Below, in pieces: positions 3,252 to 35,295 of a DNA stretch of 64,000 nucleotides (positions are counted from its first letter, which is position 1; each line of letters begins with the position of its first letter). The position numbers and the translations under genes are program-made. The stretch is from assembly GCA_031370565.1 (NCBI GenBank), contig JANMQO010000163.1, positions 7,576 to 71,575 of the forward strand, given 5' to 3'. The stretch comes from Chloroflexota bacterium (GTDB lineage: Bacteria; Chloroflexota; Limnocylindria; Limnocylindrales; CSP1-4). Below the pieces are notes generated by a model, which made no database searches, was not told the DNA's origin, and saw only the letters and a program-made list of their open reading frames with translations.

Positions 3252-4352
3252 TTGAAGCTCAAGGGAACCCGACTGCTCGCGCTGGGGGCGGCAGGCCTGC
3301 TCATGGTCAACGCCTGTAGCAGCGGCGCCGGCGACTGGAAGGCAGCCGCCGACAAGACCAAGGCCGCGGAGCAGGCCAAGACGTTCGCGACCTACGGGGC
3401 TCCGAACGACTGGGCCAACTACGGCGAGGAGTTCGCCCAGTTCTGCTCGACCAACGGATTCACCTGCAACCCGAGCCGCTCGCTCGGCGAGGACATGTCG
3501 TCCGCCGAGGAGATCACGGCCTTCGACGCCGAGAAGAACAACCCGAAGGCCGGTCTGGCCGACATCGGGATCCTGTTCGCGAGCCAGGCCGAGGCCAAGG
3601 GCGTCCTGCCCGCCTACACCCCGTCGACCGCCGGGAACCTGGCGGCCTACCTCAAGGGCGCCAAAGGCGGCTGGGTCGCCACCTTCGTGGGCGTCCCGGG
3701 CTTCGTTGTCAACACCGACGTTCTGAAGTCGAAGAACATCGCCGTCCCCACGACCTGGGCGGACCTCGCCAAGGCCGACTACAAGGGCCTCGTCGGGCTC
3801 GGCAAGCCGGGCTCGTCGGGCACGGCCACGATGGCCTTCGTGGCGATGAACCTGGCCGCCGGCGGCACCATGGAGGACTACACCAAGGGCATTGCCTACG
3901 CCAAGGCGATGGTCAAGAACCTGGCCTCCTCCGAGGGCAACGCGGACACGTTCGAGAAGGGCGAAGTCCCGATCCAGATCAAGTACGACTTCAACCTCAT
4001 CGCGCTGGCCAGCAAGATGAAGGCCAAGAACGTCGGCGCCCAGGTGGTCATCCCGACCGACGGCTCGATCTACGCCCCGTCGGCGATCATCGCCAACACG
4101 TACGACACGGCCCACATGGACTTCGACGAGATGTTCATGGACTGGGTCCTCAGCGACCAGGGCCAGACCATCTTCGCCAAGTTCGGCGCCCGCCCGATCC
4201 GGTACGTCTCCGGCGACCTCACGCTGCCGGCCGACGCGAAGACCCTGTGGCTCCCGGACGACCAGTACAAGGCCGTCCAGCTGGTCGACACGTCGAAGAT
4301 CGACCTCGCCAAGATCGCCGATATCTGGCAGAACCAGGTCACGGCGCCCTGA
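3252..4352 (+). CDS. ABC transporter substrate-binding lipoprotein (Fe3+/polyamine-type SBP family; PhnS-like 2-aminoethylphosphonate binding protein by context)
   Basis: TTG start with a GAGGGAG SD. Signal peptide with lipobox LMVNAC. The fold is SBP family 1. It heads the operon with two permeases and an ATPase, divergent from phnWX. Confidence 0.8.
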   Translation: MKLKGTRLLALGAAGLLMVNACSSGAGDWKAAADKTKAAEQAKTFATYGAPNDWANYGEEFAQFCSTNGFTCNPSRSLGEDMSSAEEITAFDAEKNNPKAGLADIGILFASQAEAKGVLPAYTPSTAGNLAAYLKGAKGGWVATFVGVPGFVVNTDVLKSKNIAVPTTWADLAKADYKGLVGLGKPGSSGTATMAFVAMNLAAGGTMEDYTKGIAYAKAMVKNLASSEGNADTFEKGEVPIQIKYDFNLIALASKMKAKNVGAQVVIPTDGSIYAPSAIIANTYDTAHMDFDEMFMDWVLSDQGQTIFAKFGARPIRYVSGDLTLPADAKTLWLPDDQYKAVQLVDTSKIDLAKIADIWQNQVTAP

Positions 4353-13290: not shown

Positions 13291-14244
13291 ATGACGATCA
13301 GCAACCCGGAGGACGCGATGACCATCCTCGCCCCGCCCACCATCGCCCATGGTGCCATGCCGTCCAGCGGTGGCGCGGTCGCTTCAGACCGGCCGGTCGC
13401 GCCGGGCTCGCCTGGGCCGGAGACCGGCTTCGGGGCCGATGTCGAGACCGGACTCACGACGGGCCACCGCGTTGCGGCCAAGCTGGAGGTGAGCAACCTG
13501 CGCGTGTCCTACGGCCCCAAGCTCGCCGTTCGCGACGTGACGATGCGGATTGAGGCACACGCCGTCACCGCCTTCATCGGTCCGTCTGGGTGCGGCAAGA
13601 GCACGATCCTGCGCTGCTTCAACCGGATGAACGAGCTCGTGCCGGGGGCGAGGATGGAGGGCAGCGTCTGGCTCGACGGTGAGGACATTTACGCCCCCGA
13701 TGTGCAGCCGGTGGCCGTCAGGACTCGAATCGGGGTCGTCTTCCAGCGACCCAACCCGTTTCCCATGTCGATCTACGAGAACGTGGCCTACGGACCGCGT
13801 CGGCACGGGGTGCGCGAGCGGGCCCGGCTCGATGAGACCGTCGAGCGCTGTCTCCGGCGGGCAGCACTCTGGGATGAGGTCAAGGACGAGCTCCGGCGCA
13901 AGTCAGGCCTGGCCCTGTCTGGCGGCCAGCAACAGCGCCTGTGCATCGCCCGCACGCTGGCCACGGATCCAGAGGTCGTCCTGATGGACGAACCGGCCTC
14001 TTCGCTCGACCCGATCTCGACCTTGAAGATCGAGGAACTCATCCACGAGCTGCGCGACACGTACACCATCGTCATCGTCACCCACAACATGCAGCAGGCG
14101 TCGCGCGTGAGCGATCGAACCGCGTTCTTCACGATGGGCGATGATCGTGCCGGCTACCTGGTCGAGGTGGGCGACACGACCCAGATCTTCACCAACCCCA
14201 GAGAGCGGCTGACCGAAGACTACGTGTCCGGTCGGTTCGGCTGA
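13291..14244 (+). CDS. pstB: phosphate ABC transporter ATP-binding protein (with ~45-aa N-terminal extension; start uncertain)
   Basis: [36 protein letters not shown], and the PstB-typical C-terminal half. Confidence 0.9.
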
Positions 14245-14254
14245 GAGGAGCGCG

Positions 14255-14998
14255 ATGAACCCGGACAGCGGCGCTGATGTGGACGGCGAGGGCGCCGGCG
14301 TCCGAGACGTCCGGTCCGATGGCGGGGAGGAGCGCCGGGCGGCCCTGCGCCCGCCGCTCGACCGAGGCGAGCGCGAGGTCAAGGACGGCGTGCTGCGGAT
14401 GGGCGTGCTGGTCGAGGACCAGATCCTGGCGGCCCTGGACGCCCTGATCCGGCACGATGCGGACGCCGCCCTGGCGGTCATCCGCGGGGATCGCCAGATC
14501 AATGAGGCGCAGCGGAACCTGTCGACCCTCATCGCCACCGTCATCGCCCTCCAGCAGCCGGTTGCTCGTGACCTGCGCTTCCTGCTCTCGCTCGACCACG
14601 TGACCTACGAGCTGGAGCGGATGGGCGATCACGCCGCCTCGGTGGCCAAGCAGGCACGCAAGCTGGCCCCACACCCGCCACTCGGCGCCTATGTCGACCT
14701 GCCCGAGATGGCCCGCCTGGCCGCCTCGCTGGTCCGCGGAATCCTGGGTGCGCTGGTCGACATTGACCAGGCTGCCGCGCGGGCCGTTGCGCTGCGAGAC
14801 GACGACATGGATCGGCTCTACCACCGGACCTTCGAGCAGACGCTGGAGCTCATGCGGGCCGACCCGGCCAATGTCGATCCGGGTGTACGCATCCTGTTCG
14901 CCGCCCACTACCTGGAGCGAATCGGCGACCGGGTCACGAATATCGCCGAGGGCATCGTCTTCCTGGCCACGGGCGAGAGCGTCGACCTGAATCCGTAG
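14255..14998 (+). CDS. phoU: phosphate signalling complex protein PhoU
   Basis: Two PhoU repeats, with ELERMGDHAASVAK and HYLERIGDRVTNIAE motifs. Confidence 0.9.
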   Translation: MNPDSGADVDGEGAGVRDVRSDGGEERRAALRPPLDRGEREVKDGVLRMGVLVEDQILAALDALIRHDADAALAVIRGDRQINEAQRNLSTLIATVIALQQPVARDLRFLLSLDHVTYELERMGDHAASVAKQARKLAPHPPLGAYVDLPEMARLAASLVRGILGALVDIDQAAARAVALRDDDMDRLYHRTFEQTLELMRADPANVDPGVRILFAAHYLERIGDRVTNIAEGIVFLATGESVDLNP

Positions 14999-15022
14999 TC
15001 GACTCGGGGGCGAAATCGGGCA

Positions 15023-15550
15023 TTGCGTCAACACCGCACTGGGCGTCACACTCGAGCCATGGCCGTCACCGCGATCCACCTGCTCCGCCATGCGCACGCC
15101 GGCGATCCGATCAAGTGGTCCGGGTCCGATTTCGACCGACCGCTCTCGGCTAAGGGACGGGACCAGATGGCCCGACTTGGGTCCCTCCTCGCGCTGACGG
15201 GGTTCAGCCCGGACGTGATCGTCGCCTCACCGCGTCTTCGGGCGGTCGAGACGGCCGAGCTCCTGGCAGGGCGACTCGGCGTTCGGTCCCGGACCGACGT
15301 GCGCATGGCCGACTCACTCTCGCTCAGCGTCGTCGAGCAGATCCTGGTCGATGCCGGCGACCCGGCCCGGCCGCTCCTGGTGGGCCACGACCCTGACTTC
15401 AGCGAGCTACTTGCGCTGCTCACCGGCGCGCTCGACATCCCGATGCGCAAGGGCGCCCTCGCTCGGGTCGACGCCGAGCGTCCGCTCCAGCCCGGCTCCG
15501 GTACCCTGCGCTGGCTGCTGCCCCCCGAGCTCGTGCCGGATCTCGGCTAG
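15023..15550 (+). CDS. histidine phosphatase superfamily protein, SixA-like phosphohistidine phosphatase
   Basis: LLRHAHAG...LSAKGRDQ...VIVASPRLRAVETAEL...LLVGHDP is the RHG motif of branch-1 histidine phosphatases. The start is either TTG 15023 or ATG 15059. Confidence 0.7.
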   Translation: MRQHRTGRHTRAMAVTAIHLLRHAHAGDPIKWSGSDFDRPLSAKGRDQMARLGSLLALTGFSPDVIVASPRLRAVETAELLAGRLGVRSRTDVRMADSLSLSVVEQILVDAGDPARPLLVGHDPDFSELLALLTGALDIPMRKGALARVDAERPLQPGSGTLRWLLPPELVPDLG

Positions 15551-15611
15551 CTCACCGGCGGGACGGCGGCGGGTGCCGAGCCAGCCGCGGGCATCGAGCC
15601 AATGGTGGGCG

Positions 15612-15992
15612 TCAAGCCAATGGTGGCCGACCGGGCCCCCGTCCGCGCAGCTGGCTGGCTGGGATCAGTCCGCCCGGAACGAGTCCGAGCGCGATCGCGC
15701 CGAGTCGATCCGCGAGCTTGGGTGCGAGCCGATACCAGATCCACGTGCCACGTCGCTCGCCGTCGACAACGCCAGCCTTGCGCAGCACGCGCAGATGGTG
15801 CGACACGGTCGGCTGGCGGACGCTGCAGCAGGAACCGAAATCGCAGGCACAGACCTCGCCTTGACCCGCCAACTGCCGGACGATCGCCAGGCGGGTCGGG
15901 TCGGCCAGCGCCTGGAGAAGTTGGATGTCCGGGTCGAGGCTACGCGTCTTCACCGGGGCAGCATATCGACAATCATCTATATTGACAAACAT
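15612..15992 (-). CDS. arsR: ArsR/SmtB-family metalloregulator
   Basis: LQALADPTRLAIVRQLA...GEVCACDF...QPTVSHHLRVLRKAGVV is a wHTH with a CxC metal(loid) site. The ATG lies inside the AT-rich operator and the -10 TATATC abuts the start codon. Confidence 0.85.
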   Translation of the reverse strand: MFVNIDDCRYAAPVKTRSLDPDIQLLQALADPTRLAIVRQLAGQGEVCACDFGSCCSVRQPTVSHHLRVLRKAGVVDGERRGTWIWYRLAPKLADRLGAIALGLVPGGLIPASQLRGRGPGRPPLA

Positions 15993-16012
15993 CGATATAT
16001 CGCCCAGACTCC
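15963..16012. promoter_or_regulatory. AT-rich palindromic operator/promoter island between divergent arsR and arsM
   Basis: ATATCGAcaatcatctatattgacaaacaTCGATAT plus the perfect palindrome CGATATATCG. A TTGACA -35-like hexamer faces arsM. The local GC content is far below that of the window. Confidence 0.5.
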
Positions 16013-16053
16013 AGACTCGCCCAGCCAGCCAACGCGCCAACGAGGATGCCCCG

Positions 16054-16884
16054 ATGCCCGACGCCACGCAGCAGATCCACGACGAGGTCCGCGCCCGATA
16101 CGCCGAGGCCGCCTTGTCCGTCCTGGACCCCACCCTGCCGACCGGTGGGGCGCGTTCCTCCACCACGCGGACCGACGCCGGATCGTGCTGTGAGCCGAGC
16201 GCGGCGGAGACGGCGGTTGGCGGCGGATGCTGCTCCGGCGCGGTGTCGCCTGATGTCTTCGGCGCCCAGTTGTATGACGCGGCCGACCGCGGCAGCCTGC
16301 CGGACGCGGCGACCCTGGCCAGCCTGGGCTGCGGGAACCCGACGGCGGTCGCAGAGCTCCACGAGGGCGAGACGGTCCTCGACCTGGGCTCCGGCGGTGG
16401 GATCGACGTTCTCCTGTCTGCCCGCCGGGTGGGTCCGAGCGGCCGAGCCATCGGCCTCGACATGACCCCCGAGATGCTGACCCTCGCCCGCCGCAACGCG
16501 GTCGAGGCCGGCGCGACCAACGTCGAGTTCATCGAAGGGACGATCGAGGCGATCCCCCTGCCCGCCGCCAGTGTCGACGTGGTCATCAGCAACTGCGTCA
16601 TCAACCTGGCTGCCGACAAGGGTGCCGTGCTGACCGAGATCGCCCGAGTCCTGCGCCCCGGCGGTCGCGTGGGCGTGAGCGACGTGGTCGCCCGCAATGA
16701 CCTGAGCCCAGCCCAGCGCGCCGAGCGGGGCAGCTACACCGGCTGCATCGCCGGGGCGCTGTCGTTCGCCGAGTACGAAGCGGGCCTCCGTGCGGCGGGT
16801 TTGGTGGACATCTCCGTCCGACCGACCCATGAGGTCGCTGACGGCCTGTTCGCGGCGATCGTCCGGGCGACGAAGCCCGGCTGA
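16054..16884 (+). CDS. arsM: arsenite S-adenosylmethionine methyltransferase
   Basis: GAGGA SD before the ATG. SAM motif VLDLGSGGGIDVLLSA. Conserved Cys residues (CCEP, CGNP, CIAG) are typical of ArsM. Confidence 0.85.
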   Translation: MPDATQQIHDEVRARYAEAALSVLDPTLPTGGARSSTTRTDAGSCCEPSAAETAVGGGCCSGAVSPDVFGAQLYDAADRGSLPDAATLASLGCGNPTAVAELHEGETVLDLGSGGGIDVLLSARRVGPSGRAIGLDMTPEMLTLARRNAVEAGATNVEFIEGTIEAIPLPAASVDVVISNCVINLAADKGAVLTEIARVLRPGGRVGVSDVVARNDLSPAQRAERGSYTGCIAGALSFAEYEAGLRAAGLVDISVRPTHEVADGLFAAIVRATKPG

Positions 16885-16940
16885 GGCCGGTCGACCTGCG
16901 CGGAATCGGAAACGACTGCGTGGAAAGGAGGTGAGTGCAG

Positions 16941-16994
16941 GTGACGCGATGCGACTGCCCGTGCGGGCCGGAGTGCCCGTGTGAGTCCTGCTGA
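16941..16994 (+). CDS. candidate smORF encoding a 17-aa cysteine-rich peptide (M)TRCDCPCGPECPCESC
   Basis: A perfect AAAGGAGG SD lies 9 nt upstream of GTG 16941 (alternative GTG at 16935). It is bounded by an in-frame TGA immediately upstream and ends at TGA 16992-16994. It sits 57 nt downstream of arsM on the same strand. Confidence 0.3.
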   Translation: MTRCDCPCGPECPCESC

Positions 16995-17018
16995 CGCCAC
17001 GCCGTAGCAGGCCGATGG

Positions 17019-17044
17019 ACAGGGCGACGCTGGAGTCGCCCTGT
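17019..17044 (+). terminator. hairpin after the arsM/smORF unit
   Basis: acagggcgac-gctgga-gtcgccctgt is a perfect 10-bp stem followed by tctaat. Confidence 0.4.
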
Positions 17045-17354
17045 TCTAATGTCCGCCGTCGAGCTGCTGCCGATCCGGGCCACCTGTCCGTCTCTGGTGC
17101 GAGTGCCCACGATTGGCCTGGTCTGGCACTTAATGCCGCCCAATCTTCGACGCCTTGCCGTCCACCCCAGTCACGCGGACTGCCTGCGCTGAGCCCGCCG
17201 CTGCACGGCCGAGCAGCCCACGTTACGCACGTCACACGCAAACCGGCGTGGCAGGGCGAGGCCGGACGAGGCGGGCCGGACGAGGCGGGCCGGGGCGCCC
17301 GCCGAACGCGTTCGACGGGCGGCACACGCGGCTCCTCAGCGGGATGCCGCGGAG

Positions 17355-18572
17355 CTAGCGACCAGCCTCCCGGCCACGTCGGGCGATCGCGTCGATGGTG
17401 ACAGCTGCCAGGAGGACCGAGCCCGTGATCATCTGTTTCACGGCCGGCTCGAACGACAGCAGGTCCATGCCGTTCGAGATCGACTGGATGACGAGGATCC
17501 CGAGCAGGGCCGCCCAGACGGTCCCCCGGCCGCCGAACAGGCTCGTCCCGCCGATGACCGCCGACGCGATCGCGTTGAGCAGGACGTCACCGGAGCCAGC
17601 CGACTGGTTGACCGCCAGCAGCCGCGACGACGCCATGACGCCGCCCCAGGCCGCCAGCGTCGAAGCGATGGCGAACACGGCGATCCGGACCCTGGCCACC
17701 GGGATACCGGCTCGACGGGCAGCTTCCGCGTTGCCACCGACCGCGAAGACCATGCGGCCGAACCGAGTCCGTCGGACGACATAGTCCATGACCACGATGA
17801 GCCCCACCAGGAAAACGACCGAGAGTGGTAGCCCACGGTCCAGCTGCAACACGTACAGCGCCGCGATGACGAACAAGGCGACGATCGCCGCGCGCACCAG
17901 GACGACCGCGGACGGGTCTGCGGTCAGGCCGGCCGCCAGTCGACGGCGGCGCGCGAGCACGCCGTTGCCGGCCACGTAGACCACGAACAGCGTTCCGAAC
18001 ATCCAGGCCACGGGACCCTTGAAGAAGGTCCCGGCCAGCCCCGTGATGAAGTCGTCGCGCAGGTTGACCGTGCCGGTGTTGCCCAGCACGAACAGCAGCG
18101 CCCCCTGCCAGCCGATCAGGCCGGCCAGGGTGACCACGAACGACGGGATCCGGAAGCGGGTGATCCACAGGCCGTGCAGGACGCCGATGAGCAGCCCCGC
18201 GCCGACGCCGGCCAGGACCGCGATCGGGCCCGGTACGCCCAGCTTCACGTTGAGCACGGCCATCAGGCCGGAGCACAGGCCGCTCACCACGCCGACGGTC
18301 AGATTGATCTCGCCGAGAAGCAGCACGAACACCACGCCGACCGCGATCGTGCCGACCGCGGCCATCTGGAGGGACAGGTTGACCAGGTTCTGCGGGACGA
18401 AGAACGTCCCGTCCGAGGCCAGGTAGAAGATGCCCCAGATGAGCAGCAACCCGACCACCACCGGCAGCTGGCCGACGTCTCCCTGGGCGATCCGCCGCCG
18501 ATACTGGGCGATCACCCCGCGCAGGCCCGGCTGTTCCGCGACGAGCCGCGGATCATTGAGCATCGTGCTCAC
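17355..18572 (-). CDS. sugar ABC transporter permease (RbsC/XylH/FrcC-like)
   Basis: Ten-TM permease of monosaccharide-type ABC importers. Its start overlaps the ATPase stop. Confidence 0.8.
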   Translation of the reverse strand: MSTMLNDPRLVAEQPGLRGVIAQYRRRIAQGDVGQLPVVVGLLLIWGIFYLASDGTFFVPQNLVNLSLQMAAVGTIAVGVVFVLLLGEINLTVGVVSGLCSGLMAVLNVKLGVPGPIAVLAGVGAGLLIGVLHGLWITRFRIPSFVVTLAGLIGWQGALLFVLGNTGTVNLRDDFITGLAGTFFKGPVAWMFGTLFVVYVAGNGVLARRRRLAAGLTADPSAVVLVRAAIVALFVIAALYVLQLDRGLPLSVVFLVGLIVVMDYVVRRTRFGRMVFAVGGNAEAARRAGIPVARVRIAVFAIASTLAAWGGVMASSRLLAVNQSAGSGDVLLNAIASAVIGGTSLFGGRGTVWAALLGILVIQSISNGMDLLSFEPAVKQMITGSVLLAAVTIDAIARRGREAGR

Positions 18573-34138: not shown

Positions 34139-35295
34139 CCTATGCGCGGCCGTCCGCGTCGTGAGTCAGTCGAGCGGCGCAGCGGGCCAACTCGCAGTCG
34201 GTCGAGCGCCGCCCAGACCCGGACGTGTGCCGAGCGGCGGCCCGCCGCACCTGGCTGGTTCGACTCGCCGGCTGGTGTCGCCCCAGCGGTTCCGGAGGGC
34301 GCGGCCGCAGTGTTGGACCCGCCGCTGGACGCAGTGCTCGACGCGGTCGACGGACCGGCGACAGCTTCAGGCCGGGGTTCAGGCCGGGGTTCAGGCCGGG
34401 GCTCGGGCCGGGGACTTTCGGGGGCGGTCGATGGACCGGCGGCAGCCTCCGGCCGAGGCTGCGGGCGAGGGTCCGGCCGGGGCTCGGGCCTGGGGTCCGG
34501 TCGGGGATCGGCCGGGCGACGTCCCGGTCCGGTCGATGGACCTGCCGGATCGGTCGGTCGCTGGTCGGCCCCTGTGGTGTCACCGGCCTGGCGGGCCCCC
34601 GGCGCAACGTCGGCGTCCGGCATCGCCCGCCTGGAGCGCGCCAGGTACTCCGGTCCATGCTTGCGAGGGTCCGCGTATTCCTTTGGGTTGATCGTCCAGT
34701 ATGTCCCGCTGCCGGCGCCGTACCAGCTGGCACCCTCCCAGGCCGGATCGAACGGTTCCCGGTCCGCTCCGTCGTAACTGGTCGAGCCGATCGTCGCCTT
34801 GGAGCGCCGGCGTTCACGTGGACCCGCCCGTGACGCGCCGCCGGTACTGCCGGTGCCGGTGCCGGTGCCGGTGCCGGTGCCGCGACGCTGACGGGTGCCG
34901 CCGCTGTCAGTACCGCTGTCGGTGCCGCCGTCCGCATCCGACGCACGCCCGGCGGCTGGCTCGGCCGACCCGGCCGCGCCCCCTCCGGTCCGACCCCGAG
35001 CTCGAGCGCGGTACGTCTCGCGGGACGCTCGGGTGCGCGGGTCGCCTCCCTCGGTGGAAGCCGGCGGCGTGGCGGGCCGGCTCGCCGGCCCGGCTCGGAC
35101 GGACCACGGTCGGACCGCTCCGTCGACGACCAGCAGCTCGTACGCGGCCTGGATCGCCAGAAACCTTGGCAGGGCGCGCTCCCCGGCGGAATCCGGGTGG
35201 TACTGCTTGGCCAATCGTCGGTAGGCGCGCTTGATCTCGGTGGCGCTGGCGCCGCTGGTCAGGCCCAGCGTGCCGTACGGGTCGGTGACGGTCAT
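34135..35295 (-). CDS. J-domain (DnaJ N-terminal) protein with long Pro/Gly/Thr-rich disordered repeat region
   Basis: DPYGTLGLTSGASATEIKRAYRRLAKQYHPD is a canonical J-domain with the HPD tripeptide. The rest is low-complexity with PEPRPEPRPDPRPQPRPE and (GT)6 repeats. Confidence 0.65.
   Translation of the reverse strand: MTVTDPYGTLGLTSGASATEIKRAYRRLAKQYHPDSAGERALPRFLAIQAAYELLVVDGAVRPWSVRAGPASRPATPPASTEGGDPRTRASRETYRARARGRTGGGAAGSAEPAAGRASDADGGTDSGTDSGGTRQRRGTGTGTGTGTGSTGGASRAGPRERRRSKATIGSTSYDGADREPFDPAWEGASWYGAGSGTYWTINPKEYADPRKHGPEYLARSRRAMPDADVAPGARQAGDTTGADQRPTDPAGPSTGPGRRPADPRPDPRPEPRPDPRPQPRPEAAAGPSTAPESPRPEPRPEPRPEPRPEAVAGPSTASSTASSGGSNTAAAPSGTAGATPAGESNQPGAAGRRSAHVRVWAALDRLRVGPLRRSTDSRRGRPRIG
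34368..34415 (-). repeat. 12-bp tandem repeat (caggccggggtt) x3-4 inside the J-protein ORF
   Basis: Read directly. It encodes the PEPRPE repeats. Confidence 0.75.
34849..34885 (-). repeat. hexanucleotide microsatellite (gccggt)x6 inside the J-protein ORF
   Basis: Read directly. It encodes GTGTGTGTGTGT in frame. Confidence 0.8.

Follow-up and report, generated by a model that had tools for sequence, protein, structure and literature searches.

Does the short Cys-rich frame that directly follows the As(III) methyltransferase gene arsM in this DNA encode a peptide, what would be its origin and what could it do for the enzyme encoded next to it? We put these questions to a 64-kb stretch of DNA (hereafter the window; 69.6% GC) and to the related loci that could be gathered. 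An earlier note on this DNA had considered plausible a metallothionein-like or As(III)-binding micropeptide that is co-transcribed with arsM under the control of ArsR and missed by standard annotation.

The arsR-arsM locus and its small open reading frame

The locus is built on two divergent genes. On the minus strand, arsR (15612-15953) encodes a metalloregulator of the ArsR/SmtB family (NF033788, 91.6 bits vs a cut-off of 55). Its start is uncertain: GTG 15953, the choice made by the gene calls in relatives, gives 113 aa, and ATG 15992 gives 126 aa; the calls in relatives range from 112 to 123 aa. On the plus strand, arsM (16054-16884) encodes an As(III) SAM methyltransferase of 276 aa (NF008823, 283 bits vs a cut-off of 263). 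The control region between the two genes, at 15956-16005, contains an imperfect palindrome, GGGCAGCATATCGA / TCGATATATCGCCC, with its halves at 15956-15969 and 15992-16005, and is a candidate ArsR operator. A promoter-like site, TTGTCA-17-TATGCT, runs on the minus strand from 15988 to 15960, its -10 element ending at 15960. Should arsR start at GTG 15953, the start called in relatives, its mRNA would have hardly any leader or none.

The window ArsM is 100% identical to database protein P0001, and the exact-protein look-up returned no record for it. It aligns with Cys72, Cys174 and Cys224 of CmArsM, and the N-terminal CC pairs align as well. The enzyme thus retains its catalytic cysteines, and a peptide encoded next to it would therefore be an accessory and not a missing catalytic piece. 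The protein ends in ATKPG, without the Cys-rich C-terminal tail that most of its relatives carry.

Behind the arsM stop, a 39-nt spacer (16885-16923, plus strand) leads to the Shine-Dalgarno (SD) sequence AAAGGAGG at 16924-16931 (plus strand), and 9 nt further GTG 16941 opens a small open reading frame (smORF; 16941-16994, plus strand) that would encode (fM)TRCDCPCGPECPCESC and ends with TGA 16992-16994. The peptide is 35% Cys, with a CDCPC...CPC pattern and no aromatic residue. The SD at this distance from GTG 16941 and the TGA at the end of the frame are as the earlier note had described them, and so is the in-frame TGA just upstream, which lies at 16932-16934 (plus strand) and is homologous to the arsM stop of three related loci (L001, L163 and L165, in the arrangement GGAGG-TGA). 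Relative to arsM, the smORF is shifted to the -1 frame, as it also is in the closely related L161/162. That note had allowed 17 to 19 residues, six of them Cys. The shorter version, six Cys in 17 residues from GTG 16941, stands; the 19-residue version from GTG 16935 finds no support, since this codon lies only 3 nt from the SD and the relatives place an ATG at the equivalent of 16941. Indeed, we take 16941 as the start because ATG is found at the equivalent position in L161/L162, L001 and L163.

Cys-rich frames alone are common in the GC-rich window, which holds 10 stretches with at least five Cys in 20 aa. The earlier note had pointed to the rarity of a strong SD in such DNA. AAAGGAGG occurs once in the window when both strands are counted, and in 200 simulations of the window by a second-order Markov model no GGAGG was followed 5-10 nt later by a start codon and an ORF of 10-40 aa with at least five Cys. 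A chance origin of this SD-led Cys-rich ORF is excluded. The core Cys motif of the peptide has no second occurrence in the window. Of the 41 crude gene models of the window, 26 are preceded by an SD-like motif of 4 nt or more, and SD-led initiation is therefore normal here. The same note had also raised the idea that the SD belongs merely to a structure at the 3' end of arsM; this was checked and rejected, the fold of 16880-17000 being no better than that of shuffled sequence (z 0.09). Apart from the smORF, a density of six or more Cys in 20 aa is reached only near 34848 (plus strand) of the window: CRCRCRCRCRCR, with eight Cys among its 20 aa, is read there in a frame that stays free of stops for 180 codons. 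A short DNA repeat read off-frame probably accounts for it.

A GC-rich stem-loop follows the smORF, in agreement with the hairpin proposed earlier. It lies at 17017-17046 (plus strand), 22 nt past the smORF stop, with a 12-bp stem and a 6-nt loop (dG -30.9 kcal/mol, z -2.6), and it is identical in L161. No canonical U-tract was found after it. This stem-loop is likely to be the end of an arsM-smORF transcript. The Rfam scan of 15500-17800 gave a single sub-threshold snoRNA match and no known RNA element.

Conservation of the smORF in related genomes

Genome scans, metagenome scans and exact-protein look-ups gathered 177 loci, of which 168 could be classified. The nearest relatives of the window ArsM are from Chloroflexota ('Candidatus Limnocylindria/Limnocylindrales'), together with some Actinomycetota, and all of them come from uncultured organisms, as metagenome-assembled genomes. 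The metagenome scan with ArsM returned, among the matches listed, mostly relatives of 60-80% identity, and added a single locus with a separate smORF, L088.

At least seven distinct versions of the smORF, in at least 12 loci from independent assemblies of Chloroflexota ('Limnocylindria'), were found directly after arsM genes whose products are 69-92% identical to the window ArsM. Next to the window itself (GTG start, (M)TRCDCPCGPECPCESC), the fully syntenic L161/162 (ArsM 92% identical) reads MTRCDCPCGPECPCESC from an ATG, and L165 (78%) reads (M)TRCDCPCGPDCPC from a GTG. The other four versions all start with ATG: MTTDCECGPDCPCGH in L001 (80%), MSTDCECGPNCPCGH in L163/164 (77%), MLSACDCPCGPDCPDCC in L088 (77%) and MLSRSIDAECGPECPDCGPDCPCEC in L166-169 (69%). 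The peptides range from 14 to 25 aa and contain five to seven Cys. In all seven distinct loci GGAGG is found 7-9 nt ahead of the start codon (five ATG, two GTG) and the stop is TGA. The core D-C-x-C-G-P-x-C-P is invariant, with the sole exception of the first of two repeats in L166, where Ala replaces the Asp. The flanking DNA cannot be aligned between lineages. The test of conservation downstream of arsM, which the earlier note had named as a way of checking its proposal, thus came out in its favour: related genomes retain the frame of the peptide, the spacing of its Cys, the SD and a start codon.

A clear, strong GC-rich stem-loop is found about 10-40 nt past the smORF in five of the seven distinct loci, and the sequences of these stem-loops are unrelated. 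The transcription unit would therefore end past the smORF and not past arsM, and it is this position of the terminator-like hairpin, after the smORF rather than after arsM, from which we infer co-transcription of the two genes. In L001, L163 and L165 the arsM stop is placed between the SD and the smORF start, an arrangement that suggests translational coupling. Further clusters of tail-less ArsM proteins end in GGR, EGR or SRQEA, which corresponds to an SD that overlaps the 3' end of arsM. The smORF was present in all four members of these clusters that were fetched, and the family is therefore probably larger than 12 loci.

The downstream neighbours vary by lineage (an ABC permease, GDPD or EamA), and arsR and arsM are the only conserved ones. 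Two other kinds of short ORF were considered and rejected on the basis of this context. A precursor of a ribosomally synthesized and post-translationally modified peptide (RiPP) is not indicated, as arsR and arsM are not accompanied by conserved maturase or transporter genes. The mycobacterial polycysteine leader sORFs are Cys-responsive attenuators located upstream of the genes that they regulate; like the smORF, they are tiny, Cys-rich, found in high-GC bacteria and missed by annotation. However, the smORF lies downstream of arsM and is followed by a terminator-like hairpin, the next gene is on the opposite strand in the window, the neighbours differ between lineages and the RNA fold is not significant, which argues against a Cys-rich leader or attenuator.

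As the earlier note had expected, the smORF escapes standard annotation: it was called by no gene caller in any locus and no Pfam or NCBIfam model recognizes it. Searches of Pfam and NCBIfam, including their metallothionein models, gave no match at E-values up to 10 with a 25-aa member, the doubled window peptide or the fused tails described below. Nothing was found with a query of concatenated peptides against 5.8 billion proteins, nor by tblastn of the peptide against plasmids.

Selection on the reading frame

Between the window and L165, the smORF differs by seven synonymous changes and one conservative non-synonymous change over 13 codons (pS 0.81, pN 0.03, pN/pS 0.04, Fisher p 1.8e-5). 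The remaining pairs give pN/pS values of 0.2-0.8, with significance in some pairwise comparisons only, the tests spanning 13-16 codons. Among the 11 codon columns of the core, nine vary at the third position and three each at positions 1 and 2, and Gly is encoded by all four of its codons. This pattern indicates that the smORF is under purifying selection. A gene on the other strand was rejected as the source of the wobble pattern: one antisense frame with the same wobble positions stays open in every locus, but its length varies from 69 to 446 aa, it is a shadow of arsM, it begins inside the smORF in L001/L163 and it matches no family. Judging from the comparison of these loci, the smORF is very probably a real, translated gene.

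Relation to the Cys-rich tail of ArsM

Among the matches listed, the 168 classified loci fall into three classes: 106 with a Cys tail fused to ArsM, 12 with a separate smORF and 50 with neither, L170, L171, L172 and L032 being among the latter. In the fused proteins a linker of 25-35 aa (ADARPSVDLSxRxLPxA) extends past ATKP and is followed by a C-terminal Cys motif: GCCGGxGCC, GCGCGxGGCC, AGCC (in sequences of the Actinomycetota/Thermoleophilia type), SCGPDCCS or DCCAPGCCG, in each case directly before the stop. Fused-tail loci are found among L002-L160; two examples of tails are L026 (4651-4741), whose ArsM ends in GCGCGPGGCC, and L173 (2750-2858). The curated ArsM model NF008823 does not cover the Cys tail.

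The most informative of these proteins is P0110, encoded at L173, which is a syntenic ortholog of the window ArsM: arsR and arsM are followed by the same 405-aa ABC permease gene on the opposite strand. It ends in LPLATTDSCGPDCCS, and its terminus, LATTDSCGPDCCS, pairs codon for codon with the L001 smORF, MTTDCECGPDCPCGH, to which the P0110 tail TTDSCGPDCCS aligns. The 3' DNA of L173 reads GCG ACG ACC GAC AGC TGC GGT CCT GAC TGC TGC AGC TGA, and the L001 smORF reads ATG ACG ACC GAC TGC GAG TGC GGA CCC GAT TGT CCG TGC, and continues; the start codon of the smORF thus replaces the Ala codon of the fused ortholog. On this codon-for-codon match, the smORF would therefore be the Cys tail of ArsM, detached from the enzyme and translated on its own. 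It is a homologue of the fused tail, yet the covalent join is absent in the window, where arsM stops at 16884 and the smORF has an SD and a start of its own. In the AlphaFold2 model of the fused ortholog, the core has a pLDDT above 90 and the last 35 residues are predicted to be unstructured (pLDDT 44-53), and fission would therefore break no fold.

In a neighbor-joining tree, the window, L161/162, L165, L001 and L163/164 form a split clade, with L166-169 as its sister group and the fused forms outside. The smORF-less L170, L171, L172 and L032 are nested within this clade or sister to it, and L088 is placed apart. The simplest reading of this distance tree would be that a fused ancestor underwent fission once and that several losses came later. 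Taken together with the alignment of the tails, it inclines us to the view that a separate micropeptide gene was born by fission of the Cys tail of ArsM, an origin that we consider more likely than not.

The tail of the related enzymes from Limnocylindria and Actinomycetota and the smORF occupy the same genomic position, as the last element of the arsM unit, and both appear to be accessory and to have been lost repeatedly. They differ in that the smORF is a separate, untethered ORF with its own SD and start, and in their Cys content, 5-7 in the free peptides vs 2-4 in the tails. The patterns differ as well: CxCxC and CPC in the free peptides, vicinal CC...CC in the commonest fused tail. Therefore, the chemistry of the free peptide and that of the tail may not be identical.

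Possible role of the peptide with ArsM

The peptide probably works together with ArsM. Its homology to a tail that is tethered on most related ArsM proteins ties it to this enzyme more specifically than the label 'metallothionein-like' used in the earlier note. We propose the following scenario. ArsR-controlled transcription would produce a single arsM-smORF mRNA, on which ribosomes would initiate at GTG 16941 by means of the strong SD, and the free 17-mer would act in trans as the tethered tail would act in cis. Its closely spaced thiols (CxCxC...CxC) could capture As(III) as a tri-thiolate, with up to two As per peptide, and the bound As(III) would then be passed by thiol exchange to the catalytic cysteines of ArsM (Cys174/Cys224). 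Capture of As(III) and its hand-off to ArsM would be the most likely role of the peptide, with the chances for and against it about evenly balanced in our judgement. As(GS)3 is reported to be the preferred substrate of ArsM and to give up its As(III) to the enzyme in three consecutive thiol transfers (PMC6138428). A bolder reading, to which we give a rough probability of 0.4, goes one step further: the peptide would be a gene-encoded thiol cofactor dedicated to ArsM, an As(III) carrier and possibly a disulfide recycler, that takes the place of As(GS)3 in a lineage possibly devoid of glutathione. As the tail and the smORF have been lost repeatedly, and 50 of the 168 loci do without either, the peptide would be a kinetic helper rather than an essential part.

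Several known systems resemble this proposed carrier. As(GS)3 and phytochelatin-As(III) complexes likewise consist of small thiol peptides in which As(III) is bound as a tri-thiolate; these peptides are made enzymatically, whereas the smORF peptide would be a ribosomal equivalent dedicated to one enzyme. Within ars systems, the closest precedent for a Cys-based hand-off of As(III) appears to be the vicinal Cys pairs of ArsD, whose As(III)-binding cysteines are Cys12-13-18, 112-113 and 119-120 (PMC12607644). ArsD is encoded in ars operons and offers clustered or vicinal Cys for handing As(III) to a partner enzyme, as the peptide may do. However, the partner of ArsD, a folded protein of about 120 aa, is the ATPase ArsA, whereas the peptide of 17 aa has no similarity to ArsD and would have ArsM as its partner; it is too short for a thioredoxin-like fold, has no Pfam or NCBIfam match and does not belong to the ArsD class.

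The fused form of ArsM also resembles enzymes with a swinging arm, a flexible C-terminal Cys motif that shuttles metal or electrons to a buried active site. Such an arm is found in the mercury system, as the C-terminal Cys pair of MerA, and the C-terminal Cys pair of class I RNR and the GCUG tail of mammalian TrxR are precedents for a redox relay. All of these arms stay covalently attached, whereas the smORF peptide is free; we know of no naturally split, free version of the Cys arm of MerA, RNR or TrxR. The precedents among them with a redox function bring up an unlikely though not incompatible explanation, in which the tail or the free peptide would re-reduce the disulfides of ArsM and would then be reduced by thioredoxin. 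The linker, predicted to be disordered, is as expected of a swinging arm, and NCBIfam contains ArsM-like methyltransferases with redox modules or Sec tails (ArsM_AhpD_UU, MTase_UXPK_star), although both models match the window ArsM core well below their cut-offs. In the disulfide cascade of ArsM, Cys44-Cys72 and Cys72-Cys174 require reduction in every cycle, and Trx is the proposed reductant (PMC6138428). Nevertheless, vicinal CC and CxC are typical ligands of soft metals and As(III), unlike the classic CxxC redox motifs, and a 17-mer free to diffuse seems ill suited to stand in for Trx, which cells already have. The sequences examined do not separate a redox relay from an As(III) carrier, and the two may well coexist.

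It is less probable still that the peptide buffers Zn, Cu, Cd or As(III) in the general manner of a metallothionein, its gene being carried along on the ars transcript and the peptide itself not interacting with ArsM. Small metallothioneins are known from bacteria (SmtA/BmtA, MymT) and from fungi, with a Cu-metallothionein of 25 aa. The smORF peptide shares their composition (about 30% Cys, CxC/CxxC clusters, no aromatics, low mass): it is very small, about one-third of its residues are Cys, CxC is repeated and aromatics are absent, and its gene lies within a unit regulated by an ArsR/SmtB protein. To our knowledge, it is shorter than any known metallothionein. However, no metallothionein model of Pfam or NCBIfam matches it, and the smORF appears to derive from the tail of an enzyme and is strictly linked to arsM, with no match in the protein collection or in plasmids. 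The homologous segment is covalently attached to ArsM in most relatives, which argues for a function at ArsM rather than for a general buffer.

We regard as more improbable again the possibility that the smORF is a non-functional relic, a tail severed by a nonsense or frameshift mutation, untranslated and decaying. Many lineages do without the tail, and L170-L172 no longer have the smORF. Moreover, the spacer 16885-16923, which in the smORF frame reads RPVDLRGIGNDCVERR up to a stop, resembles a frameshifted remnant of the linker and is possibly a decayed piece of the ancestral ArsM linker, by its by-eye resemblance to RPSVDLSPR of the fused homologs. Decay does not account for the gain of a start codon where the fused ortholog has Ala, for GGAGG at optimal spacing in all seven lineages, or for Cys codons that are all intact, in a frame whose changes are mostly synonymous and whose flanks cannot be aligned. 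An artefact of assembly is ruled out by the identical arrangement in independent samples.

Finally, the idea that the Cys segment is still made on ArsM by read-through, selenocysteine insertion or frameshifting draws on the smORFs that lie in the arsM frame behind a single TGA (L001, 4829-4885; L163, 3326-3382; L088, 674-760; L166-169, with L166 at 3326-3420) and on the selenoprotein ArsM-like families of NCBIfam, but it is very improbable given that the window and L161/162 would need two recoding events (the -1 frame and a second TGA, 16932), that the smORF of L165 is also out of frame, that every smORF has an SD and a start codon and that no SECIS-like structure was found in the Rfam scan of 15500-17800 or in the fold of 16880-17000. 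A window ArsM of the selenoprotein type was rejected separately, as the models NF041537 and NF047649 score 161 vs 510 and 144.5 vs 460 and the smORF is out of frame. In the L001, L163, L088 and L166 lineages, low-level read-through could produce some fused isoform beside the free peptide.

Novelty and significance

What appears to be new here, from the comparison of these genes, is a free, gene-encoded micropeptide that arose by fission; the kind to which it would belong, Cys-based accessories for handling metalloids, is known. We found no description of a C-terminal Cys tail on ArsM or of an ars-linked micropeptide in the searchable full text, which omits most subscription-journal papers. The smORF would add an unannotated gene to the ars repertoire, and it draws attention to a widespread feature of ArsM, the disordered linker with its Cys motif that about two thirds of the examined loci encode. 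The tethered, split and tail-less forms of ArsM found in nature are a ready-made experiment on the delivery of As(III) in cells, and the same natural set bears on whether a free micropeptide substitutes for carriers of the glutathione type. If the peptide is indeed a thiol cofactor of ArsM, no smaller metalloid carrier made by ribosomes would be known, and nature would have demonstrated that the swinging Cys arm of an enzyme can work in trans. An As(III)-binding peptide of 14-25 aa could, if the binding is true, serve in biosensors or bioremediation. More generally, conserved ORFs of well under 30 codons that gene callers miss can be recovered through SD strength combined with comparative genomics.

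Neighbouring features of the locus

The next gene after the smORF in the window is that of the 405-aa ABC permease (17355-18572, minus strand), with its stop at 17355. An ORF at 17015-17401 (plus strand) has no family match in Pfam or NCBIfam. The stretch of about 310 nt from the hairpin to the permease stop, also without a family match, contains a 14-nt tandem repeat, GGCGGGCCGGACGA, at 17255-17293 (2.7 copies, 96% match). Since the permease gene directly abuts arsM in L173, this stretch is probably an insertion or expansion in the window lineage.

Two relatives have an ORF between arsR and arsM, L165 at 2221-2445 (74 aa) and L175 at 1728-1919 (63 aa), where the gap of the window is too short for a counterpart. 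Neither has a Pfam match; both contain T(I/A)AWM in their N-terminal part, and the C-terminus of the L165 product is EPSCCPA. They could encode a further small protein linked to ars, or could have been called in error.

On the other side of the locus, arsR-arsM adjoins genes for pstB, phoU and a histidine phosphatase (His_Phos_1), at 13291-15550 of the window. The same genes lie beside arsR-arsM in most of L161, L163, L165, L170-L172 and L175-L177, where a LMWPc (ArsC-like) phosphatase is often found as well. This recurring gene order points to a conserved link between the genes that control phosphate uptake and the arsenic genes.
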